Shown here in pieces: positions 5,815 through 47,985 of a DNA stretch of 64,000 nucleotides (positions are counted from its first letter, which is position 1; the number at the start of each line of letters is the position of its first letter). The notes below the pieces were generated by a model. That model was not told where the DNA came from. It did no database searches and saw nothing but the letters and a program-made list of their open reading frames with translations. Position numbers and translations under genes: made by a program. Origin of the DNA: Escherichia phage vB_EcoM_TH18. Location of the stretch: sequence record ON075799. One strand, given 5' to 3'.

Positions 5815-5893
5815 TGGTTGCGAGTATTGGAATCGAACCTGCAATCTTCAGGGTATGAACCTAACATGGTAAATCCATTTCCACCAATCTGCA
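5815..5893 (-). tRNA. degenerate tRNA-like element (anticodon-loop CAU; weak acceptor and T stems)
   Basis: Canonical T-loop GGTTCGATTCC, D stem and anticodon arm TTAGG-TTCATAC-CCTGA present, but T stem and acceptor have several mismatches. Confidence 0.3.
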
Positions 5894-5899
5894 ATAATT

Positions 5900-5975
5900 T
5901 GGTGTGACGGACAGGATTCGAACCTGTGACCACCTAGTCTTCAGCAAGGCACTCTACCAACTGAGTTACCGTCAC
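5900..5975 (-). tRNA. tRNA-Phe (anticodon GAA)
   Basis: Manual cloverleaf: acceptor GTGACGG/CCGTCAC, D arm ACTC/GAGT, anticodon loop CTGAAGA, T loop TTCGAAT, encoded CCA. Confidence 0.8.
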
Positions 5976-5980
5976 ATAAT

Positions 5981-6057
5981 TGGTGGGCGATGAGGGACTC
6001 GAACCCCCAAAATTCAGGTTCTAAGCCTGACATGTATACCAATTCCATCAATCGCCC
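5981..6057 (-). tRNA. tRNA with anticodon UAG (Leu-reading) but short variable arm
   Basis: Acceptor GGGCGAT/ATCGCCC, anticodon arm TCAGG-CTTAGAA-CCTGA, T arm GGGGG-TTCGAGT-CCCTC, CCA encoded; D stem has one mismatch. Confidence 0.55.
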
Positions 6058-6071
6058 ATCTATATTAACAG

Positions 6072-6263
6072 TTATGGTTTTCCACGATACACAGAAATAG
6101 TTTTCCCATTAGCATTGATAACATAAGCGGTCTGATCCTCAGACAAAAACACTTTTTGATCAATGCCGGAAATAGCTATAGACTTTTGATGAGCACAATA
6201 CCCAACAATTTTCCCACAAAAAATTTGTTCATCATTTGGAGAGACGACTTTAACTGTTAACAT
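6072..6263 (-). CDS. small hypothetical protein (63 aa) inside the tRNA cluster
   Basis: Start refined to MLTVKVV with RBS agagga 6 nt upstream; the longer ORF-track start would overlap tRNA-Pro. Confidence 0.45.
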   Translation of the reverse strand: MLTVKVVSPNDEQIFCGKIVGYCAHQKSIAISGIDQKVFLSEDQTAYVINANGKTISVYRGKP

Positions 6264-6305
6264 GGTATCCTCTGTACATTTCTGCTTTGATATGTTTATG
6301 TTTGT

Positions 6306-6383
6306 TGGTCTGTCCGGTTGGATTTGAACCAACGACCTGGTCATCCCAAGTGACCCGCGCTACCCAAGCTGCGCTACGGACAG
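6306..6383 (-). tRNA. tRNA-Pro (anticodon UGG)
   Basis: Perfect cloverleaf: acceptor CTGTCCG/CGGACAG, D arm GCGC/GCGC, anticodon arm GGTCA-CTTGGGA-TGACC, T loop TTCAAAT, CCA encoded. Confidence 0.85.
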
Positions 6384-6467
6384 AGAAATGTAGATTTTAA
6401 TTGTCCCAGAATCTACTAACTGGTATCGCTGGCTAGGTGATATCTGTGACTTGATTAAGTCAAGAAT

Positions 6468-6559
6468 TGGCGGTTCCTGAAGGATTCGAACCTTCGGTGG
6501 GGAGATTCATTCCCAACGGCTTAACAGGCCGTCACCATCGACCACTCGGTCAAAGAACC
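6468..6559 (-). tRNA. type II (long variable arm) tRNA with anticodon GUU; identity uncertain
   Basis: 92 nt; acceptor GGTTCTT/AGGAACC (one G-U), anticodon arm ACGGC-CTGTTAA-GCCGT, ~20 nt variable arm, T arm GAAGG-TTCGAAT-CCTTC, CCA encoded. Confidence 0.55.
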
Positions 6560-6568
6560 TGAATATTT

Positions 6569-6645
6569 TGGTGGATCTGGTTGGGGTCGAACCAACAATC
6601 TCTCGATTAAAAGTCGAGTGACTTAAACCATTTGGCTACAAATCC
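6569..6645 (-). tRNA. tRNA-Lys (anticodon UUU), weak D arm
   Basis: Acceptor GGATTTG/CAGATCC, anticodon arm CTCGA-CTTTTAA-TCGAG, T arm GTTGG-TTCGACC-CCAAC, CCA encoded; D stem poorly paired. Confidence 0.55.
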
Positions 6646-6663
6646 GTTAAATTATCTTTAAAA

Positions 6664-6691
6664 TAGCTAATTACTCGCACATAATTAGCTA
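6664..6691 (-). terminator. hairpin plus U-run (terminator-like) within tRNA cluster
   Basis: Inverted repeat tagctaatt...aattagcta followed on the minus strand by TTTTAAAGA. Confidence 0.3.
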
Positions 6692-6878
6692 TACGCAACA
6701 ACTCTCCAAGGAGAGCACACTAATGATCGATTACGATTATATGACTAAATTTAGACCATCATAAGTGTTTGGCTTACGCCAGTAAAGAGCGGACTGCTCT
6801 GGGGTATCGGTAAGATGGTTGCAGCCATCTACCGAAAAATCACACCAAGCAACTAAACAAGCTACATTAAAGATAACT

Positions 6879-6967
6879 TGGAGGAGGCTGACAGAATCGA
6901 ACTGTCACCATATCTCTACAGCGGGACTGGGTTCAAACCAGCTTGTGCACCATGCACCCCAGCCTCC
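6879..6967 (-). tRNA. tRNA-Ser (anticodon UGA), type II
   Basis: 89 nt; acceptor GGAGGCT/AGCCTCC, anticodon arm GCTGG-TTTGAAC-CCAGT, long variable arm, T arm GACAG-TTCGATT-CTGTC, CCA encoded. Confidence 0.7.
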
Positions 6968-7038
6968 AAAGATAGCCTCTGCCGAGGATATACACCCAAC
7001 AAAGGAGGCGCTCAGGTCAGAAGAAATCTGAGCCTTAA

Positions 7039-7132
7039 TGGAGGAAGATGCCAGACTTGAACTGGCACACCCATTTCTGGGTTACTATCTCCTTAGCAGG
7101 GAGATCCCTTACCAAATTAGGGTTAATCTTCC
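7039..7132 (-). tRNA. tRNA-Ser (anticodon GCU), type II
   Basis: 94 nt; acceptor GGAAGAT/ATCTTCC, 3-bp D stem, anticodon arm TCTCC-CTGCTAA-GGAGA, T arm GCCAG-TTCAAGT-CTGGC, CCA encoded. Confidence 0.75.
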
Positions 7133-7153
7133 AATACCTTAGTAATTAAAAAC

Positions 7154-7243
7154 TGGTGGAGAAGGAGAGAATCGAACTCTCAAGCCGTTTTACCAGTCAG
7201 CACATTTCCAATGTGCTTTCGTCGCCAATCGATTTGCTTCTCC
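7154..7243 (-). tRNA. tRNA-Ser (anticodon GGA), type II
   Basis: 90 nt; acceptor GGAGAAG/CTTCTCC, anticodon arm GCACA-TTGGAAA-TGTGC, long variable arm, T arm GAGAG-TTCGATT-CTCTC, CCA encoded. Confidence 0.65.
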
Positions 7244-7252
7244 GTTTTAACT

Positions 7253-7328
7253 TGGCAGGGGATGGTTGATTCGAACAACCGATCACGGGGTCAAAGCCCG
7301 TTGCATTAGGCCACTATGCTAATCCCCT
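7253..7328 (-). tRNA. tRNA-Gln (anticodon UUG)
   Basis: Perfect cloverleaf: acceptor AGGGGAT/ATCCCCT, D arm GCAT/ATGC, anticodon arm ACGGG-CTTTGAC-CCCGT, T loop TTCGAAT, CCA encoded. Confidence 0.85.
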
Positions 7329-7333
7329 TTTGC

Positions 7334-7410
7334 ACGAGAGTGAGGAATAGAACCTCTTAGTCACTGGTTTTGGAGGCCAGCCTTCACCCAGTGAAGTTAC
7401 GCTACTCTCA
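7334..7410 (-). tRNA. non-canonical tRNA-like element
   Basis: Good acceptor (TGAGAGT/ACTCTCG) and T-loop-like GGTTCTATTCC, but D and anticodon regions do not fold into standard arms; no encoded CCA. Confidence 0.3.
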
Positions 7411-7417
7411 TTAAAAA

Positions 7418-7975
7418 CTATTTTCGAAAAGGACTTATGAAAAATGCCAACATCACTCTCTCTCTTGAAAAAGCTCTGTCTTCAGGAACCACACTCTTCA
7501 GTTTCCAACCGACATAAATTCGCCAGTAAAATTGTTTTCCAAACAATCTAAAAGACGGGACAAACGCGAATACACCCCACGCATTGTCATTCCACATCAA
7601 CAAATAGCCTTGTTGGTTATCCTCCACATCAGAGCTTACATGGAGGTTTCCTTTCCACTTTGTCACAGATGTGATTTCACGTCCAAGTACGTGATAGGAG
7701 AAATTGTAGGCTTTATTTCTCCACAACCAAGCAACTCGTTGTAGGTAAACACCAAAACTTCCTATTTTACGGACTTCTTCCCATCTCTCTATGTGTCCTC
7801 TATCACCGTCTATAGGATTATCATATGTCTCCATCCACCTGAAAATATAAGGCAGATGCCCTGTCTTCTCATTATAGAACGGAACAACAAAAGGAGCCAG
7901 AATAACACAGAGAACCGACATAACTGGGTCAAGAGGTGCTAACAGGATCCACGATAAATATTTTAAGTATCTCAT
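7418..7975 (-). CDS. hypothetical protein (185 aa, hydrophobic N-terminus)
   Basis: ORF from six-frame track; start overlaps stop of upstream gene (ATGA). Confidence 0.5.
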   Translation of the reverse strand: MRYLKYLSWILLAPLDPVMSVLCVILAPFVVPFYNEKTGHLPYIFRWMETYDNPIDGDRGHIERWEEVRKIGSFGVYLQRVAWLWRNKAYNFSYHVLGREITSVTKWKGNLHVSSDVEDNQQGYLLMWNDNAWGVFAFVPSFRLFGKQFYWRIYVGWKLKSVVPEDRAFSRERVMLAFFISPFRK

Positions 7976-8202
7976 GCAGGATCAAGCCTAGATATAATGT
8001 ACTGGTTTAAATCTGAATATGGGAAGATACTTTCAAAGATAACCTGTTTAAATCTGAAGCCGCACAAACCGAAAAGTACCTTCTGACACTCACCAAAAGA
8101 GCAATCTTTACCAACTTTTATCACAACCGTATCGGCAATCTGCACACTTTCTATCTCTTTAGATTCATGATGCCGTACTATGATTACTTTAGAAACCATC
8201 AT
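7972..8202 (-). CDS. hypothetical protein (76 aa)
   Basis: ORF from six-frame track; translationally coupled to downstream gene. Confidence 0.45.
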   Translation of the reverse strand: MMVSKVIIVRHHESKEIESVQIADTVVIKVGKDCSFGECQKVLFGLCGFRFKQVIFESIFPYSDLNQYIISRLDPA

Positions 8203-8327
8203 ACTCGTCCATATTAAAGCCTTCTACTAAAGATAGTAGATGTCTAGGGTTGGACCGCAAACGCAACCCCATGGAATTTGTTACGGTCTTCAGTTGACCC
8301 AAGCGGATTTCATTGACATCTTTTAAC

Positions 8328-8402
8328 TGGAGCATCCAGAGGGTATCGAACCCTCGACTTCAGCTTGGAAGGCTGTAGTTTTCCCAATTAAACTATGGAT
8401 GC
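8328..8402 (-). tRNA. tRNA-Gly (anticodon UCC)
   Basis: Acceptor GCATCCA/TGGATGC, D arm GTTT/AAAC, anticodon arm (A)CAGC-CTTCCAA-GCTG, T arm GAGGG-TTCGATA-CCCTC, CCA encoded. Confidence 0.75.
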
Positions 8403-8407
8403 ATATT

Positions 8408-8483
8408 TGGTGGGAGTGGTAGGCTCTGCCCCTACGTCCTCTCGATTATCGGTCGAGCGATCTACTAACTGATCTACACTCCC
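8408..8483 (-). tRNA. tRNA-like cloverleaf with Ile-type anticodon GAU but non-canonical D and T loops and C at position 33
   Basis: All four stems perfectly paired, CCA encoded, but D loop AGTTAGTA lacks GG, T loop is GGCAGAG (no TTC), anticodon loop is CCGATAA. Confidence 0.5.
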
Positions 8484-8546
8484 AAACTGTACTGGCCCAA
8501 CAACCACGATTGGAGGGTATCGTCACACATCAAAGCCAGTACAGTT
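8484..8546. other. long perfect hairpin (13-bp stem, ~37-nt loop) between two tRNA genes
   Basis: aaactgtactggc (8484-8496) and gccagtacagttt (8534-8546) are exact reverse complements. Confidence 0.6.
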
Positions 8547-8551
8547 TTAGT

Positions 8552-8641
8552 TGGTGTGCCGTGATAGAGTCGAACTACCCGAGTCCCTTTCGAGACAGGA
8601 GATTTACAGTCTCCCCCGCTACCCCTACGGTCTAACGACAC
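8552..8641 (-). tRNA. tRNA-Tyr (anticodon GUA), type II
   Basis: 90 nt; acceptor GTGTCGT/ACGGCAC (one G-U), anticodon arm GGAGA-CTGTAAA-TCTCC, long variable arm, T loop TTCGACT, CCA encoded. Confidence 0.7.
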
Positions 8642-8642
8642 A

Positions 8643-8990
8643 TTAACCTTGTTTGAATTGAACAATATCCGTCGAGAACGGTTTAGCTGCCTTAATAGGT
8701 GCTTTTTCTGAGTTATCTTTTTCGAGTAACTCTTCGTTTTCCTCATCAAAGTAATCAGAAAGCATCTGCTCACCTTTCTCAATAACATAACGAGCTATAT
8801 TTTCTCTGATATTGTCTTTTGTATTCACATTCTTCATCAAATCCCTAAGAACCTGATGAGCTTCAGGAATCATTGCAATCAGATTCGTTTTTAAATCTAG
8901 GATATTTTTCTCTAACTGAATTGCATTAGATTCCTCTTTCAGAGGACGACCTTTTCCTCTTCTACGTTTTGTAAGCTGCTTAGTAGCCAT
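8643..8990 (-). CDS. hypothetical protein (116 aa, basic N-terminus)
   Basis: Start refined to MATKQLTKRRRGKG; the longer ORF-track N-terminus overlaps the tRNA cluster; sigma70-like promoter just upstream. Confidence 0.5.
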   Translation of the reverse strand: MATKQLTKRRRGKGRPLKEESNAIQLEKNILDLKTNLIAMIPEAHQVLRDLMKNVNTKDNIRENIARYVIEKGEQMLSDYFDEENEELLEKDNSEKAPIKAAKPFSTDIVQFKQG

Positions 8991-9009
8991 TTTAAAACCC
9001 CACTTAATG

Positions 9010-9039
9010 ATATTATCAAATAAAAACATATCTGTCAAG
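9010..9039 (-). promoter_or_regulatory. sigma70-like promoter (TTGACA, 18-nt spacer, TAATAT)
   Basis: Minus strand reads TTGACA...TAATAT shortly upstream of the ATG at 8990. Confidence 0.5.
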
Positions 9040-9075
9040 TGGTATTTTAACATATTTACCAAGAAATTGAAAGTT

Positions 9076-9152
9076 TGGAGCACGGTGTCGGACTTGAACC
9101 GACATATATCTGTTTTGCAGACAGATCCGTAACCAAATTCCAGCAACCGTGC
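9076..9152 (-). tRNA. tRNA-Cys (anticodon GCA)
   Basis: Acceptor GCACGGT/ACCGTGC, anticodon arm TCTGT-CTGCAAA-ACAGA, T arm GTCGG-TTCAAGT-CCGAC, CCA encoded; D stem weak. Confidence 0.65.
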
Positions 9153-9228
9153 AATAAGTACCCCAGGTAGAGAACCTATAGAGTGGGTCTTACGAGCCGC
9201 GCTGACGATTCTCAAGTTGGGGTTAATC

Positions 9229-9305
9229 TGGTCGAGGAGACAGGATTCGAACCTGTGACCTACGGCTTAGAAGGCCGCTGCTCTATCCAACTGAGCTACA
9301 CCCCG
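9229..9305 (-). tRNA. tRNA-Arg (anticodon UCU)
   Basis: D arm GCTC-AGTTGGATA-GAGC, anticodon arm GCGGC-CTTCTAA-GCCGT, T arm ACAGG-TTCGAAT-CCTGT, CCA encoded; acceptor has one mismatch. Confidence 0.7.
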
Positions 9306-9505
9306 AAAATAAGAATGCTTTATAGTGTATGGTTACTCAACCTCACTCCAACTTCCACAGTTGGTGCTCTACGAGCATGACTACGTTTGAAATCAACGTT
9401 GCGCACCGATAGCTTTCTCACGCATTGTATGCCTCATTCCCAACAAATGCTGATCAGACATTTATATCGAATAATATAAGCTAATACACTATAAAACAAA
9501 CTTGT

Positions 9506-9602
9506 GGCTGGGTGATGGAATCGAACCACCTATGTATTCAACGGCTTCCCCGTCTATTTTCAGGATTATAAATCCTCGCCCTTGCCAAAGGGCTTACCCA
9601 GC
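9506..9602 (-). tRNA. over-long (97 nt) tRNA-like element, anticodon arm ambiguous
   Basis: Perfect acceptor (GCTGGGT/ACCCAGC), D arm GCCC-TTTGGCAA-GGGC, T arm GGTGG-TTCGATT-CCATC; central region has only a 4-bp stem with loop TTTATAA and ~30 extra nt; no encoded CCA. Confidence 0.35.
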
Positions 9603-9604
9603 AT

Positions 9605-9679
9605 TGGTGCTCGCAGCAGGTTTCGAACCTGCAACCCCCTGCTTACAAGGCAGGTGCTCTACCGTTGAGCTATACGAGC
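9605..9679 (-). tRNA. tRNA-Thr (anticodon UGU)
   Basis: Acceptor GCTCGTA/TGCGAGC, D arm GCTC/GAGC, anticodon arm CCTGC-CTTGTAA-GCAGG, T arm GCAGG-TTCGAAA-CCTGC, CCA encoded. Confidence 0.85.
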
Positions 9680-10044
9680 AATAAGACATTGCTTCCGATT
9701 AACAGCCTTGAGGCTTTACAGACCATATCTTGTGAGCCATAACCTGTGCCAAGGATTTCAGATGATAAACGAAATTTTATCTTTCAAGAGTCAACTTTCA
9801 AGTTTCATCTTTTACATTTAACCATTGACCTTTATTGTATGAACTTTTACTTAGTGGAAACAACAAGGCATCTTCGTGTGCCTCGCTGCATCTATGTCCT
9901 GTATTATCCTCATACATATACGATACATGGTGGGGGATATTTAACCTCCAACCCCCAGGAGGCAAGATGATGTAAACTTCGTTAATCAAAAGCAATGTTT
10001 TAAATTTCAAAACAAAGGAACGATAATGATATTATCAGAGCCTT

Positions 10045-10692
10045 TTAGAGAGAGTGCTCAATCTCAATTTCTGTCTTAGCGTTTGACTCAGACAACGCAA
10101 AATCAACGTTAGACAAGAAATCTTCAATCTCTTCTTCAAGAGAACGAATCTTAGAAGCCAGTTCAAGAGGATCCACAACCGATGGTGTGTTCATCATTCG
10201 AATAGGAGCTTCCACAGTCTTAATCTGCTCTGCATCTGGCGCTTTATCACGTTGGATATATGGCGCTCTTGCATTTTCAAGTTTATCTTCCAGAGATTTT
10301 TCTTCTTTTGCCAGAAGAAGCTGTGCAGAAGCACGCTGTGCACAAAGTTTGTTTAACAACTCTTGTTTAAAGCAAATCGTCCGTTTGCGTTCGATTGCCT
10401 CAGCAACTGTCATAGACACATTACCAATTTTGACAATTGTCTCAGCATTAGACTTAACAATTTTTGCTTTCAGTTCATCACGCACTGCCAAGAGGTCTTG
10501 CAGACTTTGATAGTCGTTGATCGCAGATTTCTTAAAATCATCAACAGAGCCGATATAACCCGGAATCTTACAATTATTCTCAGTTCCTTTTGCAATCTTA
10601 ATACAATCAAGATTGTAGATACGCTTATTGATCTTATCTTCAATTTTAGAGATAGAAGCAAGTGCACGAGTTACGGAAATCTTAGTAGACAT
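10045..10692 (-). CDS. hypothetical protein (215 aa, charged coiled-coil-like)
   Basis: ORF from six-frame track; charged, heptad-like composition. Confidence 0.55.
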   Translation of the reverse strand: MSTKISVTRALASISKIEDKINKRIYNLDCIKIAKGTENNCKIPGYIGSVDDFKKSAINDYQSLQDLLAVRDELKAKIVKSNAETIVKIGNVSMTVAEAIERKRTICFKQELLNKLCAQRASAQLLLAKEEKSLEDKLENARAPYIQRDKAPDAEQIKTVEAPIRMMNTPSVVDPLELASKIRSLEEEIEDFLSNVDFALSESNAKTEIEIEHSL

Positions 10693-10765
10693 GCGATCTC
10701 TCCTATGTAAATCAGCTTTGATAAAGTAACTATCCAGAAAAACAAAAACTATGTCAAGAAAAATT

Positions 10766-10957
10766 TTAATCTTTTACAGCATCTTTTATAGAATCACAAA
10801 GATCTTGAACAACATCAGATGTCGGTGACAAAATCATCTCGTCGGCTGCTGCTATAGCATCTGATGCTAAATCAACAAACGGAGTTGTTACCGCAGAAGT
10901 CACTTCAACAGCCGTTATTGTTACTTCGCTTGCAATCTTAAGCAAAGATCCTATCAT
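10766..10957 (-). CDS. hypothetical small acidic protein (63 aa)
   Basis: ORF from six-frame track in an otherwise gene-free gap. Confidence 0.4.
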   Translation of the reverse strand: MIGSLLKIASEVTITAVEVTSAVTTPFVDLASDAIAAADEMILSPTSDVVQDLCDSIKDAVKD

Positions 10958-11033
10958 AATCTCAACCCTCCTGAATATCCGTGATTCCCTTTATTTAACG
11001 ACGCTGGCTCACGGTGGCACTCTCGTCAATAAA

Positions 11034-11357
11034 CTATTTTTTAGTTTTCTTACCGTTTTCTACAGAAATGCTTGTTTTCTGTTTCGCTTCTCGTTCGCGC
11101 TTTGTTTTCCCAGTGCGAATACGATATGAAGCAGAAATAACTTCACCACCAATGACACGAGACACAGATTCGTAATACATTTCAGTATTACCGTCTTCAT
11201 CTTTGCGTTTTTTCAGAACTGCTACAGTTTGCGTTTTACCACCAAGGCGCACATCGTGCGGTGCAGAATGTGTCTGCGTGGATTTTGATCCAAACTGAAA
11301 AGGTTGCTTTATCGCCTCGATAGCTGACACCTTTTTAGCAGACTGTTTCTTAGCCAT
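11034..11357 (-). CDS. hypothetical basic protein (107 aa)
   Basis: Start refined to MAKKQSAKK with strong RBS ggagga upstream; lysine/arginine-rich. Confidence 0.55.
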   Translation of the reverse strand: MAKKQSAKKVSAIEAIKQPFQFGSKSTQTHSAPHDVRLGGKTQTVAVLKKRKDEDGNTEMYYESVSRVIGGEVISASYRIRTGKTKREREAKQKTSISVENGKKTKK

Positions 11358-11408
11358 TAAGTTTTCTCCTCCGAAAACAATAAACATAGTTTATTTCGTG
11401 TGCCACAT

Positions 11409-11485
11409 TTGGTGGCCCCTGCTGGACTTGAACCAGCGACCAAGCGATTATGAGTCACCTGCTCTATCCAACTGAGCTAAGGGGC
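11409..11485 (-). tRNA. tRNA-Met (anticodon CAU; initiator/elongator/Ile2 not distinguished)
   Basis: Acceptor GGCCCCT/AGGGGCC, D arm GCTC-AGTTGGATA-GAGC, anticodon loop CTCATAA, T arm GCTGG-TTCAAGT-CCAGC, CCA encoded. Confidence 0.8.
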
Positions 11486-11818
11486 CGAATCTCTTAATAT
11501 GAGATGATATTATCCTGTATGATCTACATTGTCAAGAGATATTTTAAAATTTTATACATCCCAGTTTTCTTCTTGATAACAACCTTCCCCGAATCCAACT
11601 TCTTTTTCAAAATCAATACCTTTTTTCATACATTCCTCACATTAACAGATATTGTTTTCAAACTCAAAACGTAAAATACGAACTCTGTCAATACACTGCT
11701 GTAATCTACAAAGCAACAACTCAACTTGTTTATGCGTCTCTTCAGTATACGTTTTGGTCATCTTGCTTTTCTCCGTGATCTTTTCATTGCAGCTTCTGCA
11801 CGTCTTTGTTTACGATTT

Positions 11819-12067
11819 TTAGATGGTTGTTCTAAGGATCCTGATAACGTACTTTGTTGTGCTAATCCCTTCGATGGGGTAGAAATAATATAATCCCCCT
11901 TCTTCACCGAACGATGCAATATATTTCCAGGATTCAATTCCAAAACCAGTTGTAGAAAAAGCGACATCATCCGCTTCTTCAAGCGCATCATCATGTGTTT
12001 TATGGAAAGACTCATGTTCTACGTACTCCCCGTTATCAGACTTAAGAACCATTTTTAATTTAAACAT
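11819..12067 (-). CDS. hypothetical acidic protein (82 aa)
   Basis: ORF from six-frame track with ggtga RBS-like sequence upstream; preferred over the overlapping frame 11758..12015. Confidence 0.45.
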   Translation of the reverse strand: MFKLKMVLKSDNGEYVEHESFHKTHDDALEEADDVAFSTTGFGIESWKYIASFGEEGGLYYFYPIEGISTTKYVIRILRTTI

Positions 12068-12135
12068 AACAAATCACCACTAATTTTATTTTTATCTTGT
12101 TATTAGATCTTATCAGTGGTGTTTATTTTTGTCAA

Positions 12136-12342
12136 TTAAACTATTCCAAAAGCCTTGACACCACGCTCGTATTCTGCTACTGCAAGCTCATGAGGAGAAA
12201 GGTCACATGAGGCATCCTTGCAAAGACCGACTTCGATGTAATGTTCTTCTAGTCCATCAAGGATATCTGGCTCCCACGCTTTTTTCATGTCTGGATGGAC
12301 TGATGCACGATTTCTATCGTACTTCGCTACGAGATTTCTCAA
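12136..12342 (-). CDS. hypothetical protein (68 aa)
   Basis: ORF from six-frame track, downstream of the nadV terminator. Confidence 0.45.
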   Translation of the reverse strand: MRNLVAKYDRNRASVHPDMKKAWEPDILDGLEEHYIEVGLCKDASCDLSPHELAVAEYERGVKAFGIV

Positions 12343-12354
12343 AACATTCTCCTC

Positions 12355-12382
12355 AAAATAAAAACCCCTCCATGTGGAGGGG
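12355..12382 (-). terminator. rho-independent terminator after nadV
   Basis: Hairpin cccctcca/tggagggg preceded on the plus strand by an A-run (U-run on the minus transcript). Confidence 0.55.
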
Positions 12383-12395
12383 AATGATTATGGTG

Positions 12396-14111
12396 TTAAA
12401 GCTGTGATAAGGCTCTTTGGCGAATTTCTTCAAGATCCTCATCCACAAGCAGCTTACCATTAACAAAAACTGTTCTAAGCTCGTTATCATGGTCAGATAC
12501 TTGGTTAATACCAAGATTATCTACCAGCTTCAACTCGCCATCATCACCACGAATAACTTTAACAAAACCTTTCGCAGATTTCTTCCCAAGATCAGTCTTA
12601 GGCTCTTTTACGACCATTACTTGTCTGCCATCAATCACAGCACCAGTAGCTTTTACAGCCATCCCAAGAGAATCACGGGTTGTATATTGCGTTGTATAAG
12701 ACCCTACACCAAACACAATGTTACTGGAAGCAAACCCTCGTTCTTCAAGGCGCTCAAAGATCTCTTTAGCACGGGAGATTGTGATAGAGTCTCCGTAGAT
12801 TAAACCAACATGGCTATCAAGAACTTTGTAACCCAAAGAGTTTACACTACCACCAAAGATTTCCCACAAGCATTGTACAGCACCCTTAACTTCCTCTTTT
12901 GTCAGATAATTTGTAAATTCATCACCTGTCAAAGATTTCCAATCTACGAGGTTGCCTTCCGAATCTCGCATCCATGAAGTGTCTCTGGACATCTCGTATA
13001 AAGTGACATATTTGCCATTTTTAAACAGCACAGCATCCATGTCACAGCACTGCCCCGTTGCCCATTCTTCCTGAGAGCACACGCGATAACCAGCAATGAT
13101 GTGCTCTGGGATCCCACTGTCAGGTCGGAAGACCAGCTTGCCATCACGAGACATAATCTCATCTTTCAGGATTTTTGCTGCCTGTGTAATGATTGCCCAA
13201 AAATCATAGCTGTCAGCGACGTATGAAGCATAACCTGATGGGAAAATCTCTGTCACATAACGCTTTAAGAACTCAACTTCAGCACGAAAACGTGCTTCAT
13301 CAAGCGGCATATCAGGATTTTCCTGCTGGATACGCTCAACAATAAAACCAATGTTCGTTGTCGCTACGCTATGCTCAGATGCGGGAATAGACCCAGCAAC
13401 AAAGCGACCTTTCATGTTGTAATAGCGATTTGCGTAAACAATCGCTGGAATTGTATCTGTGCCCATTGAGCTAATCAGTTGCCCAAATTCGCTCTGTGCT
13501 GCGTCATGTGTTCCAGCTTCACCACGGTATGCAAAACAATGGTTCTGGAAAGGAACATGATCGTTGTTATCACATGTTTTCTTTGCCCACAGTTCTGATA
13601 GTTTACGGTATTGCCAGAAAGTCGTTGCCGTGGTAATTGTCTTCCAAGTCTCCGATGAGATCACGCTCTCAAGGAAGTTCGGCAGCCAGTAAAAATCAGG
13701 ATGCGTGTTCTGAATCGTGAACATGGGAACCTGAACAGGAACAAGAGTTCCTTCAGGCAAAGCCCTAATTTCAATTGGGAGATAACCAAGGTCATGCAAT
13801 TTCTCAAAACCCCAAGTTTCAACAGCATCCTTCCCAATGCTCAAATCACAAATCTCTTTGTAATCCTGAATCGCCTTTTCTTTCGGTAAAGCGAAGAAAT
13901 TATTATTAAACATGTCGATCAGGAACCACTTGATAAATCCCTGAAGACCTGCAAACATCACACGATGGTCATCATCTGCAAAGTGTACAAAGTGTTTCAC
14001 ATTGCGTGGGGTCATGTTGTCTTGAACAAACTGTGAACGTCTATCGTACATCGAGATGTGACTTGGTTTATAAAAATCTGCGAACAGCAATGGACTTTCT
14101 TTGTGAAGCAT
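12396..14111 (-). CDS. nadV: nicotinamide phosphoribosyltransferase (NAMPT/NadV family)
   Basis: 571 aa; overall resemblance to the NAMPT family by eye (not searched); adjacent to a PRPP synthetase gene. Confidence 0.7.
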   Translation of the reverse strand: MLHKESPLLFADFYKPSHISMYDRRSQFVQDNMTPRNVKHFVHFADDDHRVMFAGLQGFIKWFLIDMFNNNFFALPKEKAIQDYKEICDLSIGKDAVETWGFEKLHDLGYLPIEIRALPEGTLVPVQVPMFTIQNTHPDFYWLPNFLESVISSETWKTITTATTFWQYRKLSELWAKKTCDNNDHVPFQNHCFAYRGEAGTHDAAQSEFGQLISSMGTDTIPAIVYANRYYNMKGRFVAGSIPASEHSVATTNIGFIVERIQQENPDMPLDEARFRAEVEFLKRYVTEIFPSGYASYVADSYDFWAIITQAAKILKDEIMSRDGKLVFRPDSGIPEHIIAGYRVCSQEEWATGQCCDMDAVLFKNGKYVTLYEMSRDTSWMRDSEGNLVDWKSLTGDEFTNYLTKEEVKGAVQCLWEIFGGSVNSLGYKVLDSHVGLIYGDSITISRAKEIFERLEERGFASSNIVFGVGSYTTQYTTRDSLGMAVKATGAVIDGRQVMVVKEPKTDLGKKSAKGFVKVIRGDDGELKLVDNLGINQVSDHDNELRTVFVNGKLLVDEDLEEIRQRALSQL

Positions 14112-14174
14112 GATCTCAACCCTCCAACCTAAAAGCGTATTTTTTCACTAAAACGTATCTTTGTCAAGATGTAA

Positions 14175-14984
14175 TTAAAAATTTTCTGTCCAGTCGTAGT
14201 ACGCATAGATTTCGTCAACGCCACCGTTGAGAATAAATTCTTTCCCACGAGAGAAAATCCCATGCGTGACATACAAGATAACACGTTTAGCACCAGCAGC
14301 TTTCAAGGCTTGAGCTAAGTTTGTAAACGTAAACCCACCATCGCAGATATCATCAACAATCAGGCACATCTTCCCATCGACATCACCAAACACTGTTGTG
14401 CCTGTGATTGCCCCTGTTCCCACATCACGGATTTTACCAGCTTCAACCACAGATAGTTCCAAGGCATCAGCTACCTTCTGGGTCTTCTTGCGTGCACCTG
14501 CATCTGGAGCAACCAACACAAGCGATTCGTCCGTAAGCAGATCAAAATCAAACTTCATGTTCAAGAACAATTCAGTCTGAGAACGAATTTTCACGTTATC
14601 AAGCAGTGCTGCGGATACGTCACTGTGTGGGTCATCGACGATGACTTTGTGGAAACCCAGCGAGTTAATCATTGTGGCAAAGACTTTCACCGACAGAGCT
14701 TCACCAGGGTTCATAACTCGGTCTTGTCGAGCATACGGGATGTACGGCAGGTGTAAAACCTTTTCCACACCAACATCCAAATTGCCAAGACGATTGACTG
14801 CATCAACAAGCAACGCAAGACACATCACATCTTGGGAGTGCTTAATGCGAGCGAAGATATCCACAAAACCAATCGAACCCTTAGGGATATAGTGCATATC
14901 GATCTTCACCTGCTCCTCACCACCACTGAAGGTAAAATGGTCAACTGGAACATGCAACTTGTTCAAACTCAAACGAATATTCAT
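14175..14984 (-). CDS. prs: ribose-phosphate pyrophosphokinase (PRPP synthetase)-like
   Basis: Motifs PYIPYARQDR, VAPDAGARKK and PRPP-binding LIVDDICDGGFT match the Prs family pattern. Confidence 0.7.
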   Translation of the reverse strand: MNIRLSLNKLHVPVDHFTFSGGEEQVKIDMHYIPKGSIGFVDIFARIKHSQDVMCLALLVDAVNRLGNLDVGVEKVLHLPYIPYARQDRVMNPGEALSVKVFATMINSLGFHKVIVDDPHSDVSAALLDNVKIRSQTELFLNMKFDFDLLTDESLVLVAPDAGARKKTQKVADALELSVVEAGKIRDVGTGAITGTTVFGDVDGKMCLIVDDICDGGFTFTNLAQALKAAGAKRVILYVTHGIFSRGKEFILNGGVDEIYAYYDWTENF

Positions 14985-15382
14985 GATTTATCTCCTCTAG
15001 CACGATTGACGATAATATAATTTCTTGGTTTCACGTTACCATCAGAATCCTGAAATCCTGATCTGACACGCCTGACATAACCAAAGCTCTCCATCCGAGA
15101 CAGAAATTCAGACACTTTGGTTCGTGAGTTTTCGTTCCACCCCAACAGACCACACAAGGATTGCTGTGACGGAAAGAATACCAGTTCCCCACCCAAGGGG
15201 TTCCGACTCTTGAAATACTCGTATCTCCACAACAAGCGTATCAGTCTTTGCAGATCGCTTGGTGATAACCGTTCATCAAAAACCCACTCTGTCGGCACAG
15301 CGATGTACGACCCAGCTTTCGGATTTACATGGAAACCCCCAACATTCGATTTCAAGGCAAACTCCGGTGTGTAATTCAACAC
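14981..15382 (-). CDS. hypothetical protein (133 aa)
   Basis: ORF from six-frame track; first minus-strand gene beside the AT-rich strand-switch region. Confidence 0.5.
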   Translation of the reverse strand: MLNYTPEFALKSNVGGFHVNPKAGSYIAVPTEWVFDERLSPSDLQRLIRLLWRYEYFKSRNPLGGELVFFPSQQSLCGLLGWNENSRTKVSEFLSRMESFGYVRRVRSGFQDSDGNVKPRNYIIVNRARGDKS

Positions 15383-15452
15383 CGAGAATGCTACTCATAA
15401 CACCACACAATGTCAACCCCTCCCATATGTCCCCATTTCAGGGACATTATGA

Positions 15453-15540
15453 TCTAATATAATATATATTATATAATATAATTTAATATAATACTACGTA
15501 TTATATATATTATAATATATATATATAATTTATATAAAAT
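15453..15540. repeat. AT-only low-complexity repeat tract (TA/ATA-type)
   Basis: ~90 nt of taatataatatatattatataatataatttaatataat... between divergent gene blocks. Confidence 0.8.
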
Positions 15541-15640
15541 ACACTAAGTCTTGAAGAATGTCAAGACTTGATTTTAAATATTTTTGTTGATATGATTCGA
15601 TTGAGTCGAATCGTATGGTTCGATGATTTCGAATCATAGA
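15541..15640. promoter_or_regulatory. cluster of palindromes at the divergent intergenic region
   Basis: agtcttga-agaatg-tcaagact, gattcga-ttgag-tcgaatc and atgattTCGAAtcat dyads next to the AT tract. Confidence 0.5.
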
Positions 15641-20896: not shown

Positions 20897-21109
20897 ATGG
20901 CTAATATTCGCACCTTGTTAAAAAATGCAAAGCAAGTTTTATTTTCCGATCACGATTATTTCAATAAAGACATTACAGGCGTAAAGAATATCAAAGACGT
21001 AAAAAATGTCATGGGTATCTATTGCAATATGAAGCGAGTAGGCACATTTGGCAATAAAGTATTATATCAGGCAGGTGACTATAATTTTACTTTGACAATT
21101 ATTTCATAA
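20897..21109 (+). CDS. hypothetical protein (70 aa)
   Basis: ORF with RBS caggaga; GC hairpin in 5' UTR. Confidence 0.5.
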   Translation: MANIRTLLKNAKQVLFSDHDYFNKDITGVKNIKDVKNVMGIYCNMKRVGTFGNKVLYQAGDYNFTLTIIS

Positions 21110-46024: not shown

Positions 46025-46498
46025 TTAAATCTCCTCTTTCCACAAACCATCTTTTTTAACCCACATTTTTTGGTTATCAGAACCCCTGAACCTTTTGGTT
46101 GTAGGCTTAGACATATCATACTTACCATCTATAACAATGTCAACAAGATTTTTAATACTTTCAGGTATTTCTTCAAATAAATATCCTGTCCACAGCCAAA
46201 TGTCTTTATCATCTCCGTAAACTGACCGTACCTTTAAAATAATCTTTATAACACCATCAATATTTTGTGGATCAAGTGGTTCCCCACCTAAAATTGAGAG
46301 TCCTTTTATTTGCTTACGTGCCAAATCCTTTATAATTCTATCTAAGTGTTCGTCTGTAAACATTTCACCATAGCTATATGACCAAGCTCTTTGGTTAAAG
46401 CATCCGCGACAACAATGACCACATCCGCTAACCCAGAGGGAGCATCGCACTCCCTCCCCGTTGATCATATCTGTTGGTTCATAACCGCAGAAATTCAT
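46025..46498 (-). CDS. nrdG: anaerobic ribonucleotide reductase activating protein
   Basis: Cys cluster SGCGHCCRGCFN typical of the NrdG glycyl-radical activase; adjacent to nrdD. Confidence 0.85.
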   Translation of the reverse strand: MNFCGYEPTDMINGEGVRCSLWVSGCGHCCRGCFNQRAWSYSYGEMFTDEHLDRIIKDLARKQIKGLSILGGEPLDPQNIDGVIKIILKVRSVYGDDKDIWLWTGYLFEEIPESIKNLVDIVIDGKYDMSKPTTKRFRGSDNQKMWVKKDGLWKEEI

Positions 46499-46875
46499 GT
46501 ATGTTTCACTCTCTCTACAACTTCTTGCATCTTACCCTTGTTATAAGGACGGCTGTTTGGAGCAGACAAATATCCAGACACACGTCTAATCACACTTATT
46601 GTTTCTTCATCATGATTGCCACAAGAAGGGCACTCGAATCCCTTAGCTGTGGCCTTGAACTCACCAGAGAAACCACACTCGTAACATCTATCTACAGGCT
46701 GATTTATACCAAAATAAGGGATGTGTTCATATCCATAATCCACTAAGGCTTCCAACGCTTGCATGTTGTTTCTTAGATTAGGAACTTCCACATAACCTAT
46801 GTTACCACCATTGCTTATCTCAGCAAACCCACATTCATAATCCCATTTGGAGAATGGATCAGACGTTTTCCACAC
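46495..46875 (-). CDS. nrdD: anaerobic ribonucleotide reductase NrdD, 3' exon (glycyl-radical and zinc-ribbon region)
   Basis: CYECGFSGEF...CPSCGNHD zinc ribbon and RRVSGYL glycyl-radical motif. Confidence 0.75.
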   Translation of the reverse strand: MWKTSDPFSKWDYECGFAEISNGGNIGYVEVPNLRNNMQALEALVDYGYEHIPYFGINQPVDRCYECGFSGEFKATAKGFECPSCGNHDEETISVIRRVSGYLSAPNSRPYNKGKMQEVVERVKHT

Positions 46876-46879
46876 TGGT

Positions 46880-47240
46880 TGATGAAACGAGTTTGTCAGA
46901 TAATCTCTTTCGATTAATCCTGGGTATGCTTCTTTAAGTTTTGTGGCAAATTTATAACACAGAGATTCTGCCGATGTACCGCTGCTTTCGCAGTATTTTC
47001 ACGGACTAGACTATATCACGATCTTGTGACCACTCACAAGACCCTCCACATTTCGCCATTCAAGGCTACTCTACTCGCTTCTTCACATCAGGTGAAGCTG
47101 ATGCTATGCTTTCGATAGTCGTTAGAGACAATCTCTTGCCTACGGGGTTAGCTCTGCCCCAACAGGGTTTAGCCTTTCTTACCAGCTTATTGTTTATTCA
47201 GCTATGCCCGTTTAGTGGAGTTATTCGACAACCATCACTG
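46880..47240 (-). mobile_element. putative group I intron in nrdD (no ORF; boundaries approximate)
   Basis: ~360 nt non-coding insert between nrdD segments; R-like gatagtcgtt (~47120) and S-like agactatatc (~47003) elements. Confidence 0.5.
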
Positions 47241-47753
47241 GTTGAAGGCCCAATTGTGTTTAGGCGTGCCATATAGGCTAAATGCTAAACCACTTCGCTC
47301 TTTAAAATCAGCACAAATATCCTTCATATATTTCAAGATATTCATTGCCATCTCTTTACGAACTGGTTCGCCATACAAAATTTCAACTGCTTCATAAAGA
47401 CCCACATAGCCAATACTGATTGATGCGTAGCCATTAAAGAAGAGTTTACTAATCTTTTCATCAGGTCCGAGCCGTGCAATAGCCCCCTCCATAAACATTG
47501 TGGGATTCTGGGATGCTTTTACATCCATCAATCTACCGACTCTAACCATGTGCGCTTTATACGCCATTTCCATGTGCTTTTCAAGCAATTCGGTAAACAG
47601 AGTTTTCTTAGATTTTGCTTCTGCTGCAATCATAGGTAAGTTTAGAGAGACAACACCAAGATTGAATCTACCATCATATTTCTCACCATGTTCTGTTGCA
47701 TAATAAGATAAGAAACTTCTACACATTATGTTCGAAGTGGTTCGCAAGGCCAC
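47235..47753 (-). CDS. nrdD: anaerobic ribonucleotide reductase NrdD, central exon (ORF ends extend into introns)
   Basis: In-frame segment between two intron-like inserts, assigned to nrdD by position; true exon limits likely ~47245-47725. Confidence 0.6.
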   Translation of the reverse strand: MALRTTSNIMCRSFLSYYATEHGEKYDGRFNLGVVSLNLPMIAAEAKSKKTLFTELLEKHMEMAYKAHMVRVGRLMDVKASQNPTMFMEGAIARLGPDEKISKLFFNGYASISIGYVGLYEAVEILYGEPVRKEMAMNILKYMKDICADFKERSGLAFSLYGTPKHNWAFNQ

Positions 47754-47985
47754 TCCCGCACCACTACGTGCTGCTGCATGTCACCATGCAGACCAGACCA
47801 TATCTTCATGCTTAAAGCATGTCTGCCGTTTGGGGTGTCATCAGCTTACACTCTACATCCCTACATTCATCAGGATTGGTCGTTAGGCATTTACGGTTGA
47901 TACCGATTTAGCACGGGATTCCCTCCATAGAGGATTCCCCCGTTTAGGCAGATTTTACATGAGCAGTTATAGTTTACCCATGCTT
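47726..47985 (-). mobile_element. putative group I intron in nrdD (no ORF; boundaries approximate)
   Basis: Non-coding insert with a 38-nt block (47755-47792) identical to one in the terminase intron (609-646); S-like agaccatatc and R-like ggtcgtta elements. Confidence 0.5.

Follow-up and report, generated by a model that had tools for sequence, protein, structure and literature searches.

The gene pair at 12396–14984 of our window (the whole 64-kb stretch, from the ~120-kb genome of Escherichia phage vB_EcoM_TH18, that was analyzed) is a copy of an already catalogued phage NARP1 counter-defense operon and holds no new biology. We consider it very probable that the locus is NARP1 in its core form, an operon of the two genes adps and namat, carried by an Avunavirus-type E. 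coli myophage. Positions 12000–15447 are 100% identical to Escherichia phage 18-1-2 (OK136180) and 94% identical to Av-05. Osterman et al. (2024, bioRxiv 10.1101/2024.02.11.579819) enter the PRS-like protein of phage 18-1-2, identical to the one studied here, in their Suppl. Table 1 ("Adps homologs") as OK136180_00122, with the remark "Namat within 10 genes: Yes". The NAMPT-like OK136180_00121, from M21, appears in their Suppl. Table 2 as an "Adps-associated" Namat. Both Av-05 genes are catalogued there too, one in Suppl. Table 1 as an Adps with a Namat neighbor, the other in Suppl. Table 2 as a Namat flagged "Adps-associated" (Osterman et al. 2024).

The identification serves as a correction, since a literal reading of the public labels gives the wrong pathway (PRPP to NMN). 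It could also be used for host-range prediction in this O157:H7-infecting phage lineage.

Layout and transcription signals of the locus

ORF calling returned two ORFs at exactly the coordinates given in the preliminary description; the 571-aa NAMPT homologue and the PRS-like ORF are both present, with homologies well above what chance would give. That the NAMPT gene is followed by the PRS gene, as had been stated, is correct in plus-strand coordinates but not in transcription: both ORFs lie on the minus strand, and the PRS-like gene is transcribed first, the NAMPT-like gene second (Table 1). The same adps-to-namat order with a short spacer is found in Bas63, ICP1, Staphylococcus JD007, Bacillus SageFayge, KB57 and CR8.

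Transcription of the NARP1 genes, which lie behind a wHTH-like ORF (orf133), probably starts at sigma-70-like promoters located at about 15388–15564. Upstream of orf133 there are two promoter-like sequences on the minus strand, TTGACA-17-TATTTT at 15564–15536 and TTGACA-17-TAGCAT at 15416–15388, and a further one, TTGACA-17-AAAAAT at 14167–14139, lies in the adps-namat spacer; each is a consensus match only. The operon promoter region sits within a divergent, AT-rich control region. A low-complexity stretch rich in (TA) lies there at 15448–15541 (~22% GC), and the control region coincides with a GC dip and a sign change of the GC skew upstream of orf133. The stop codon of orf133 overlaps the adps start by 4 nt (ATGA), and an AGGAG ribosome-binding site precedes adps. 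Beginning 14 nt past the namat stop codon, a terminator-like hairpin with a 7-bp stem (6 G-C pairs) is followed by a T-run, and the transcription unit probably ends here.

Table 1. Features of the NARP1 locus in window coordinates
Feature	Position	Strand	Remarks
Probable promoter region of the adps-namat operon	15388..15564	-	consensus matches only; predicted function
orf133	14981..15382	-	first gene of the transcription unit; PHROG 8453
adps	14175..14984	-	PRPP-synthetase-like, 269 aa
adps-namat spacer	14112..14174	-	63 nt; holds the namat RBS GGAGG and a promoter-like match
namat	12396..14111	-	NAMPT-like, 571 aa
Intrinsic-terminator-like hairpin (CCCCTCCACATGGAGGGG) then TTTTTATTTT	12355..12382	-	pattern match only; predicted function

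Family assignment of the two proteins

On its sequence signatures, the 269-aa PRS-like protein is Adps, an ADP-ribose pyrophosphate synthetase, and not a generic PRPP synthetase. Among general family models, Pribosyltran_N, Pribosyltran and Pribosyl_synth all exceed their Pfam cut-offs, TIGR01251 reaches 147 bits against a cut-off of 113 (NCBIfam) and PHROG 619 matches with E=7e-92. It does not reach the cut-off of any canonical PRS equivalog model in NCBIfam: PRK01259, the highest-scoring of the models specific to canonical PRS, yields 121 bits where 297 are required. Its sequence identity is 42% with ICP1 Adps, 43% with Bas63 Adps and 28% with E. coli Prs, and it scores ~153 bits against the ICP1 and Bas63 enzymes versus 82 bits against the E. 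coli one. In a PDB set lacking ICP1 Adps, cellular Prs match best, at ~79 bits. Canonical class I Prs identity was rejected given the missed equivalog thresholds, a loop that reads DGGFT and not DTGGT, and the lack of a C-terminal regulatory/filament module. In Av-05 another gene bears the annotation "PRPP synthetase" (Av05_0027, 70 aa; window 20897–21109); its product has no similarity to Prs or Adps and no Pfam match, so we regard that annotation as spurious.

Residues were mapped against ICP1 Adps, taken from the ICP1 genomic sequence. The catalytic residues expected of the second protein are kept (K184, D211/D212, H120, D161 and R86): the catalytic beta-hairpin lysine K184 corresponds to ICP1 K185 (SpβL1 K162), and the acceptor residues R86, H120, D161, D211, D212 and D215 match ICP1 R87, H121, D161, D212, D213 and D216. 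The PRPP-binding motifs, described earlier as intact, are recognizable but substituted in the Adps style, with DDICDGGFTF versus DDMIDTGGTL in E. coli Prs. The PP loop reads CDGGFT (C214–T219), compared with CDGAAS in ICP1, CDGGRT in Bas63 and IDTGGT in E. coli. In the ICP1 Adps structure, adenine is contacted by F18/F92, F221/F223 belong to the lid (F223 also touching adenine), and the PP loop and donor site are remodelled (PMC13586617). At the adenine-contact and lid positions F19 and F220 are kept in the TH18 protein, whereas ICP1 F92 and F223 are not conserved (M91 and N222); Bas63 Adps also has Met at the F92 position. The C-terminal alpha11-alpha12 module, whose loss has been called a "defining evolutionary signature" of Adps (PMC13586617), is absent: the protein has 269 aa versus 315 aa in E. 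coli Prs, and the alignment stops ~46 residues short of the Prs C-terminus. The catalytic lysine, the acceptor residues and the C-terminally truncated PRPS fold are all shared with SpβL1 and ICP1 Adps (PMC13586617). The predicted reaction is ADPR + ATP to ADPR-PP + AMP.

The 571-aa NAMPT-like protein is, as its residues indicate, Namat, a nicotinamide ADP-ribose transferase, with the predicted reaction ADPR-PP + nicotinamide to NAD+ + PPi. The proposed NAPRTase assignment holds (Pfam, E=2e-28), as does that of the Pribosyltran models for the PRS-like partner. PHROG 448, "nicotinamide phosphoribosyl transferase", matches with E=9e-195, and PRK09198 scores 476 bits (cut-off 405). The latter model is labelled "nicotinate phosphoribosyltransferase" in NCBIfam, a generic product name. 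Among PDB entries, 9W5X/9W5W (SpβL1 Namat) match best, at 420 bits, with human and rodent NAMPT at ~170 bits. The score to Bas63 Namat is 414 bits versus 87–133 bits to NARP2-type Nampt/NadV (KVP40-like, T4-like, Ralstonia). A PncB/NAPRT reading was rejected, and the nicotinamide-type identity given in the preliminary description stands: all 32 of the 32 PDB matches are NAMPT, PBEF or Namat, none is NAPRT, and D219 lines up with the Namat Asp that forms a hydrogen bond to nicotinamide.

The nicotinamide-, NMN ribose-phosphate- and adenine (SCH)-binding residues of SpβL1 Namat (9W5X/9W5W, PMC12774641) are kept. D12, Y14, F193, R196, D219 and H247 align with SpβL1 D13, Y15, F189, R192, D215 and the catalytic His, and R329, D331, G440, D441, G470 and S471 with R306, D308, G360, D361, G390 and S391. 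The SCH clamp motif, G470-S-Y-T-T-Q-Y-T-T-R-D480, fits the published Namat motif GSXΦXΦXΦTRD, in which positions 3 and 7, here Y472 and Y476, are the adenine-stacking aromatics; Bas63 has GSYTYQYMTRD. Position 5, usually aromatic, is Thr throughout the Vequintavirinae clade. In the PRPP-type Nampts compared (n=3), GGGLLQQLxRD or GGALLQQLxRD stands in place of the aromatic clamp. The SCL loop (beta1-beta2), TPR-N-V-K39-H40-F41, exceeds its Nampt counterpart by 8 residues. Namats carry Arg, Lys or Tyr at the third SCL residue plus a stacking residue, which is Arg40 in SpβL1 (PMC12774641). The third residue is Lys in TH18, as in Bas63, and the putative stacking position is His40, compared with Trp in Bas63 and Tyr in Gram-positive phages. 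The conserved HDF motif, present in Bas63, reads HCF in the clade of the TH18 protein. Two loops carry insertions of 30 and 77 residues versus 12 and 20 in SpβL1-like enzymes (~18 and ~57 extra), the 77-aa insertion following the RPDSG strand.

The record OK136180 annotates Namat from M21, which would remove D12 and Y14, the equivalents of the nicotinamide-binding Asp13' and Tyr15' of SpβL1 Namat. Because the M21 start loses these residues and a GGAGG ribosome-binding site precedes the ATG at 14111, sequence evidence identifies the 571-aa start as the right one.

In NJ trees both TH18 proteins fall among Adps-linked sequences. The Adps tree has one cellular outgroup only, and it is the published phylogeny that sets the Adps clade apart from cellular Prs.

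Predicted chemistry and competing readings

Synthesis of ADPR-PP from ADPR and ATP, with no PRPP made from ribose-5-phosphate, has been shown for the SpβL1 and ICP1 Adps only (Osterman et al. 2024; PMC13586617). The NAMPT-like enzyme of the published work prefers ADPR-PP and yields NAD+ directly; when both donors are offered, NAD+ alone is made (Osterman et al. 2024). For the ADPR-PP preference with direct NAD+ formation, and for counter-defense against SIR2, TIR and SEFIR NADases, the evidence comes from the SpβL1, Bas63, Fado and DyoEdafos homologues. The TH18 Adps and Namat are 38–43% identical to characterized enzymes, and their activities, substrate preference, expression and anti-defense phenotype are predicted by homology. 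Besides this modest identity, the Thr at SCH position 5, His40, the M91 and N222 of Adps and the HCF motif speak against the NARP1 reading.

By this homology, a host defense NADase of the SIR2, TIR or SEFIR type would split NAD+ into ADP-ribose and nicotinamide. Adps would then move the beta,gamma-pyrophosphate of ATP to the terminal ribose of ADP-ribose, giving ADPR-PP. The adenine of ADPR-PP would be recognized by the Namat entrance clamp (Y472/Y476 plus K39/H40 of the partner subunit), and Namat would swap the pyrophosphate for nicotinamide, restoring NAD+ in one step. Since Adps and Namat would reuse the NADase products, neither PRPP nor host NMN-salvage enzymes would be used. The NARP1 reading predicts counter-defense without a PRPP drain and without host NadR or PncC. 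It also predicts resistance to E. coli defenses that convert NAD+ to ADPR and nicotinamide, namely SIR2-HerA/Nezha, DSR1/2, type I Thoeris and SEFIR.

GenBank records of this lineage label the two genes "ribose-phosphate pyrophosphokinase" and "nicotinamide phosphoribosyltransferase". One could argue, with these labels, that a genuine PRPP synthetase feeds a genuine NadV and that the NMN is turned into NAD+ by host NadR or PncC/NadD. Both proteins pass the general Pfam and TIGRFAM family models, with which the GenBank annotations agree, and all catalytic core residues shared with NAMPT are present. Without ADPR-PP, SpβL1 Namat turns PRPP into NMN in vitro, and the TH18 Namat may make some NMN as well. 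It is nevertheless very unlikely that this is the pathway. For the gene family the NMN route was tested and rejected: Bas63 counter-defense is independent of pncC and nadR, and the phage overcomes SIR2-HerA even in a ΔpncCΔnadR host (Osterman et al. 2024). In a PRPP-synthetase-type assay no product of SpβL1 Adps could be measured, yet the enzyme pyrophosphorylated ADP-ribose to ADPR-PP, and mixed donors gave NAD+ alone (Osterman et al. 2024). The TH18 NAMPT-like protein bears the Namat adenine clamp that PRPP-type Nampts lack, and its partner misses all canonical PRS thresholds and the C-terminal module. Phage PRPP-type Nampts are nearly always paired with Nmnat (94%), and Pfam scans of 79 ORFs of at least 90 aa (64 kb of the ~120-kb genome) found no NMN adenylyltransferase (CTP_transf_like), NUDIX, NadR or PnuC. 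The earlier proposal that the pair rebuilds NMN from nicotinamide via PRPP is contradicted by the Namat and Adps signatures and by the biochemistry of homologues. Its broader idea, a two-enzyme phage NAD+ route that counters NAD+-depleting defenses, appears right in outline, via NARP1 family membership.

A different possibility keeps the NARP1 chemistry but gives it a mainly housekeeping role, supplying NAD+ to phage NAD+-dependent enzymes or recycling ADP-ribose from phage or host ADP-ribosylation. Genes of nucleotide metabolism are indeed abundant in the window (class I and class III ribonucleotide reductases, ThyX, an NT5C-like nucleotidase and PhoH), and in Bas63 and Seunavirus NINP13076 the pair lies directly downstream of nrdD/nrdG. 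Yet Bas63 NARP1 produces no excess NAD+ in cells without a defense system, and ADPR-PP was seen only with SIR2-HerA. In Bas63 and Fado, deletion mutants show a sensitization that is specific to NADase defenses, and Adps homologues are almost exclusively phage-encoded (Osterman et al. 2024). We think a mainly housekeeping role exceedingly improbable and favor counter-defense.

The upstream gene and related systems

The first gene of the transcription unit, orf133, matches PHROG 8453 (function unknown) with E=1e-52. Its profile matches are sub-threshold but converge on wHTH proteins (Crp-like, TrmB, ArsR, MarR, DeoR and RctB), and the PDB profile search likewise returned sub-threshold wHTH matches only. 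The AF2 model is poor (pLDDT 48), and the homologue search gave one cluster. We conclude that orf133 probably encodes a small winged-helix DNA-binding protein. No Macro or RyR domain was detected in orf133 or the other flanking ORFs (133, 68 and 82 aa; Pfam, E<=0.01), nor in window-wide scans.

Homologues of orf133 are confined to Vequintavirinae. They adjoin NARP1 in KB57, CR8 and ABPH49 but not in UPEC06, which has no NARP1 within 3.5 kb of the homologue, or in NINP13076, where NARP1 lies ~100 kb away. An obligate NARP1 component was rejected, as in Vequintavirinae this divergent arm begins with an orf133 homologue both with and without NARP1 behind it; orf133 is probably co-transcribed with NARP1 without being a functional component of it. 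In phages of Avunavirus, Mydovirus and Certrevirus the pair may still have gained a dedicated third component in the translationally coupled orf133, perhaps a regulator through which ADPR or NAD+ status sets the expression of the operon. Similarly, the 77-aa insertion, the change from HDF to HCF and the clamp-loop His in place of Trp or Tyr may shift Namat away from the SpβL1/Bas63 paradigm. That one or the other holds, either orf133 as a dedicated third component or clade-specific Namat features that alter substrate range or regulation, seems to us improbable.

The plain NARP1 operon can be set beside other phage NAD+-restoring systems. NARP2 (KVP40 Nampt plus Nmnat/Nudix) and bacterial NadV-NadM share the homologous NAMPT fold and core and the same purpose. 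NARP2 uses PRPP via NMN and needs Nmnat, unlike the TH18 pair, and its Nampt has GGGLLQQL without an aromatic clamp, whereas the TH18 protein has no GGGLLQ motif. The NARP2-type enzymes of VH7D (KVP40 genus) and Miller and the Ralstonia NadV are 29–31% identical to the TH18 Namat and sit in the opposite part of the tree. NARP1-AP (Adps-Adpp-Namat, Vibrio phage Gary; 10.64898/2026.01.28.702374) and the RyDEP-containing NARP1 loci (PMC13232231) have the same Adps/Namat core, to which they add a Macro-domain phosphatase and a RyR-domain glycosidase, respectively. NARP3 (PnuC-NadR, PMC13464706) is also a phage NAD+-restoring counter-defense. Pfam batch scans of the 79 window ORFs found no second NAD+ route (NARP2, NARP3, NARP1-AP or RyDEP), and as Macro, RyR, PnuC and NadR were not detected, the locus is a plain two-gene NARP1. 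With the Macro-domain phosphatase missing, the pair should be incapable of using ADPR-1''-phosphate, and the phage should stay sensitive to aRES-type defenses that leave this product.

The NARP1 operon of Bas63 (JohannRWettstein, genes 79–80), also an E. coli myophage, shares both genes, their order and the shortness of the spacer between them. Bas63 is a Felixounavirus and TH18 an Avunavirus (Vequintavirinae), and their proteins are only 42–43% identical. The Bas63 operon follows nrdG and small ORFs, whereas that of TH18 follows the wHTH-like ORF heading a transcription arm. Bas63 Namat has 593 aa compared with 571 aa, and each of the two enzymes carries both lineage-specific insertions.

The gene pair and its assignment to NARP1

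The NAMPT-like gene, namat, encodes a 571-aa protein that falls within PHROG 448 ('nicotinamide phosphoribosyl transferase', E=9e-195), reaches 476 bits against NCBIfam PRK09198 (cut-off 405) and hits Pfam NAPRTase at E=2e-28. The 269-aa product of the adjoining PRS-like gene, adps, matches all three Pfam PRPP-synthetase domains, PHROG 619 and TIGR01251 (147 bits, cut-off 113). Judged by these profiles, the family membership of both proteins is unambiguous. The preliminary description, a NAMPT-family NadV with a PRPP synthetase, is borne out at the level of these families, and ORF calling in the window reproduced its two ORFs exactly, both on the minus strand.

The PRS-like gene is transcribed before the NAMPT-like gene, and in phages an operon arranged this way defines NAD+ reconstitution pathway 1 (NARP1) (Osterman et al. 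2024, 10.1101/2024.02.11.579819). We had read the pair as a salvage route that makes NMN from nicotinamide. The purpose, NAD+ restoration against host defence, holds; the chemistry (PRPP to NMN) does not. Osterman et al. also began from this annotation-based expectation and then disproved it for NARP1. Purified Adps pyrophosphorylated its substrate ADP-ribose; in a PRPP-synthetase-type assay the enzyme yielded no product. Namat converted ADPR-PP and nicotinamide directly to NAD+, which was the sole product when both PRPP and ADPR-PP were supplied. ADPR-pyrophosphate built up in infected cells, and SIR2-HerA was still defeated by Bas63 (Escherichia phage JohannRWettstein) when the host was ΔpncCΔnadR (10.1101/2024.02.11.579819).

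Could the pair belong to another NAD+ route? We ran Pfam over the 79 ORFs of at least 90 aa in the window and detected no domain of the NMN adenylyltransferase, Nudix, NadR, PnuC, Macro or RyR type; the small ORFs on either side of the operon gave none either. Therefore NARP2 (phage Nampt and Nmnat), NARP3 (PnuC-NadR), NARP1-AP (Adps-Adpp-Namat) and forms extended by RyDEP, a RyR-domain glycosidase (PMC13232231), are not represented in the window. As far as sequence can tell, the pair is a plain two-gene NARP1.

The locus is an already catalogued member of this well-characterised system. The 'Adps homologs' supplementary table of Osterman et al. holds OK136180_00122 and KM190144_00031 (phage Av-05) with 'Namat within 10 genes: Yes'; their 'Namat homologs' table holds OK136180_00121 and KM190144_00030, flagged 'Adps-associated'. 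Positions 12000-15447 match Escherichia phages 18-1-2 (OK136180) and 24-2-1 at 100% identity and Av-05 (Vequintavirinae, Avunavirus) at 94%. What is left over are details of the lineage: two Namat insertions shared with Bas63, a change of HDF to HCF, a His in the clamp loop and a coupled wHTH-like ORF.

By homology, a defence NADase would split NAD+ into ADPR and nicotinamide, and Adps would move the beta,gamma-pyrophosphate from ATP onto ADPR's terminal ribose. Namat would then recognise the adenine via Y472/Y476 and the partner subunit's SCL, one of two parts of its selectivity clamp, and swap the pyrophosphate for nicotinamide, regenerating NAD+. The defence aRES leaves ADPR-1''-phosphate (10.64898/2026.01.28.702374). 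Because the Macro-domain phosphatase Adpp is absent, the phage should be unable to cope with aRES.

Residues of Namat and Adps

The selectivity clamp was defined in the structural paper on Namat (PMC12774641). In our alignment the window protein reads G470-S-Y-T-T-Q-Y-T-T-R-D480 at this site. Other Namats have GSYTYQYMTRD (Bas63), GSYTYQYVTCD (ICP1) and GSFSYQFNTRD (Staphylococcus JD007), whereas PRPP-type enzymes have GGGLLQQLxRD or near variants (KVP40-like VH7D, T4-like Miller and the NadV of Ralstonia, whose gene adjoins NadM-Nudix). The SCL, TPRNVK39-H40-F41, is Lys-type as in Bas63 and eight residues longer than that of Nampts; its presumed stacker is His, versus Trp or Tyr. The aligned catalytic core is complete (D12, Y14, F193, R196, D219, H247, R329, D331, G440, D441). 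The top PDB matches are 9W5X/9W5W (420 bits), which are SpβL1 Namat according to the paper's data-availability statement (PMC12774641); human and rodent NAMPT reach about 170 bits. BLAST gave 414 bits to Bas63 Namat versus 87-133 bits to NARP2-type and bacterial enzymes, and a neighbour-joining tree placed the protein inside the Adps-associated group.

For Adps, we aligned the characterised ICP1 residues (PMC13586617) onto the window protein. The catalytic lysine is K184 (ICP1 K185), the acceptor residues R86, H120, D161, D211, D212 and D215 are present, and F19 and F220 are conserved. The PP loop is CDGGFT, versus CDGAAS in ICP1, CDGGRT in Bas63 and IDTGGT in E. coli. Two ICP1 adenine contacts are changed: F223 is N222 here, and F92 is M91, a Met that Bas63 shares. 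The protein stops about 46 residues before the end of E. coli Prs and hence lacks the alpha11-alpha12 module, an absence that the Adps paper describes as a defining signature of the family (PMC13586617). Its sequence shares 42-43% identity with the Adps proteins of ICP1 and Bas63 and 28% with E. coli Prs, and none of the canonical Prs equivalog thresholds in NCBIfam is reached.

Relative to the crystallised SpβL1-type Namat, the window Namat has two lineage-specific insertions. Insertion 1 spans 77 aa (20 in SpβL1-type enzymes, 8 in PRPP-type Nampts) and insertion 2 spans 30 aa (12 and 10, respectively). They lie at the same positions in Bas63, a Burkholderia plasmid homologue and other Vequintavirinae, with poorly conserved sequence and variable length (65-101 aa). 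C192 gives H-C-F for the otherwise conserved H-D-F ahead of the nicotinamide-stacking Phe; KB57, CR8 and NINP13076 share it, and ABPH49 has H-M-F. The following RGMS is RGEA. In the identical GenBank record OK136180, Namat is annotated from the internal Met21 (MYDRR...), a start that would remove D12/Y14, the equivalents of nicotinamide-binding Asp13'/Tyr15'. The credible start is the ATG at 14111, which has a GGAGG ribosome-binding site in front of it and is also the one used in Av-05.

Operon anatomy and the 133-aa ORF

Features of the NARP1 unit and its surroundings (operon signals are consensus matches, their functions predicted)
Feature	Position	Strand	Remark
(TA)-rich low-complexity tract in the AT-rich divergent control region	15448-15541		~22% GC, TAATA/AT repeats
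Promoter-like sites, TTGACA-type, in the control region	15564-15536; 15416-15388	-	consensus match
Inverted repeat, 9-10 bp	15545-15570		beside the (TA)-rich tract
133-aa ORF	15382-14981	-	stop overlaps adps ATG (ATGA), translationally coupled
adps RBS, AGGAG	ahead of adps start	-	consensus match
adps	14984-14175	-	269 aa
adps-namat spacer with GGAGG	5' of namat	-	63 nt; consensus match
namat	14111-12396	-	571 aa
Region before Met21	14052-14111	-
Namat C192	13536-13538	-
Namat insertion 2	13278-13367	-	aa ~249-278
Namat insertion 1	12882-13112	-	aa ~334-410
G+C-rich hairpin and T-run	12382-12355	-	14 nt past namat stop; consensus match
tRNA array	5815-11486	-	16 genes
70-aa ORF	20897-21109	+	Av-05 Av05_0027
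nrdD, seemingly split	~46025-49142	-
ATP-cone/NRDD ORF	47967-49142

The (TA)-rich tract is located where GC skew switches sign, and promoter-like sites on both strands flank it.

Since accessory enzymes are known to have joined NARP1 operons, we examined the 133-aa ORF as a candidate accessory. It belongs to PHROG 8453 (no assigned function), and its homologues, in 73 phage records, are confined to Vequintavirinae. They are invariably the first gene past the divergent intergenic region, whether or not NARP1 is behind them. NARP1 comes immediately after the ORF in KB57, CR8 and Av-05, and one gene further on in Acinetobacter phage ABPH49; UPEC06 has none nearby, and Seunavirus NINP13076 carries it at a distance of about 100 kb, downstream of nrdD/nrdG. 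Sub-threshold matches converge on winged-helix DNA-binding domains; the AF2 model (pLDDT 48) is too poor for use. Most likely, the ORF encodes a small early DNA-binding protein tied to NARP1 by synteny and not by function.

NARP1 relatives and the surrounding genome

An adps-namat pair also occurs on a bacterial plasmid, the conjugative pM7012 of Burkholderia sp. M701 (107131-109687), with a NUDIX-domain gene divergently upstream. Its Namat has the long insertions, and its clamp is a variant, GSYTYNMLSRD, whose seventh residue is Met. This Namat scores 421 bits against the window Namat, marginally above Bas63. FJ373894_00125 of Shigella phage Ag3, listed as 'Adps' in Supplementary Table 1 of Osterman et al., is a fusion in which the Adps N-terminus, up to the PP loop, is joined directly with the C-terminal half of Namat from about the EHS catalytic-His region. 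Within PHROG 12872 (547 positions), likewise, window Adps matches 2-222 and window Namat 254-539. From its sequence, the Ag3 protein seems to be derived from NARP1 by deletion and fusion and is probably inactive.

The window is part of a lytic myophage genome, with a terminase, 16 tRNA genes, ribonucleotide reductases and further nucleotide-metabolism genes. The tRNA array, which includes two Met and three Ser genes with small ORFs between, lies downstream of the NARP1 unit on the same strand. In the anaerobic ribonucleotide reductase gene nrdD, three separate ORFs match the NRDD domain in the batch Pfam scan of the window, one of them covering the ATP-cone and only positions 1-263 of the 562 in the NRDD profile. 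This could reflect frameshifts, or an intron/homing-endonuclease interruption of the kind annotated in the nrdD of Bas63. The 70-aa ORF carries the RefSeq label 'phosphoribosylpyrophosphate synthetase' in Av-05; the label is spurious, because no resemblance of the ORF to a Prs or an Adps could be detected, and Pfam gave no match.
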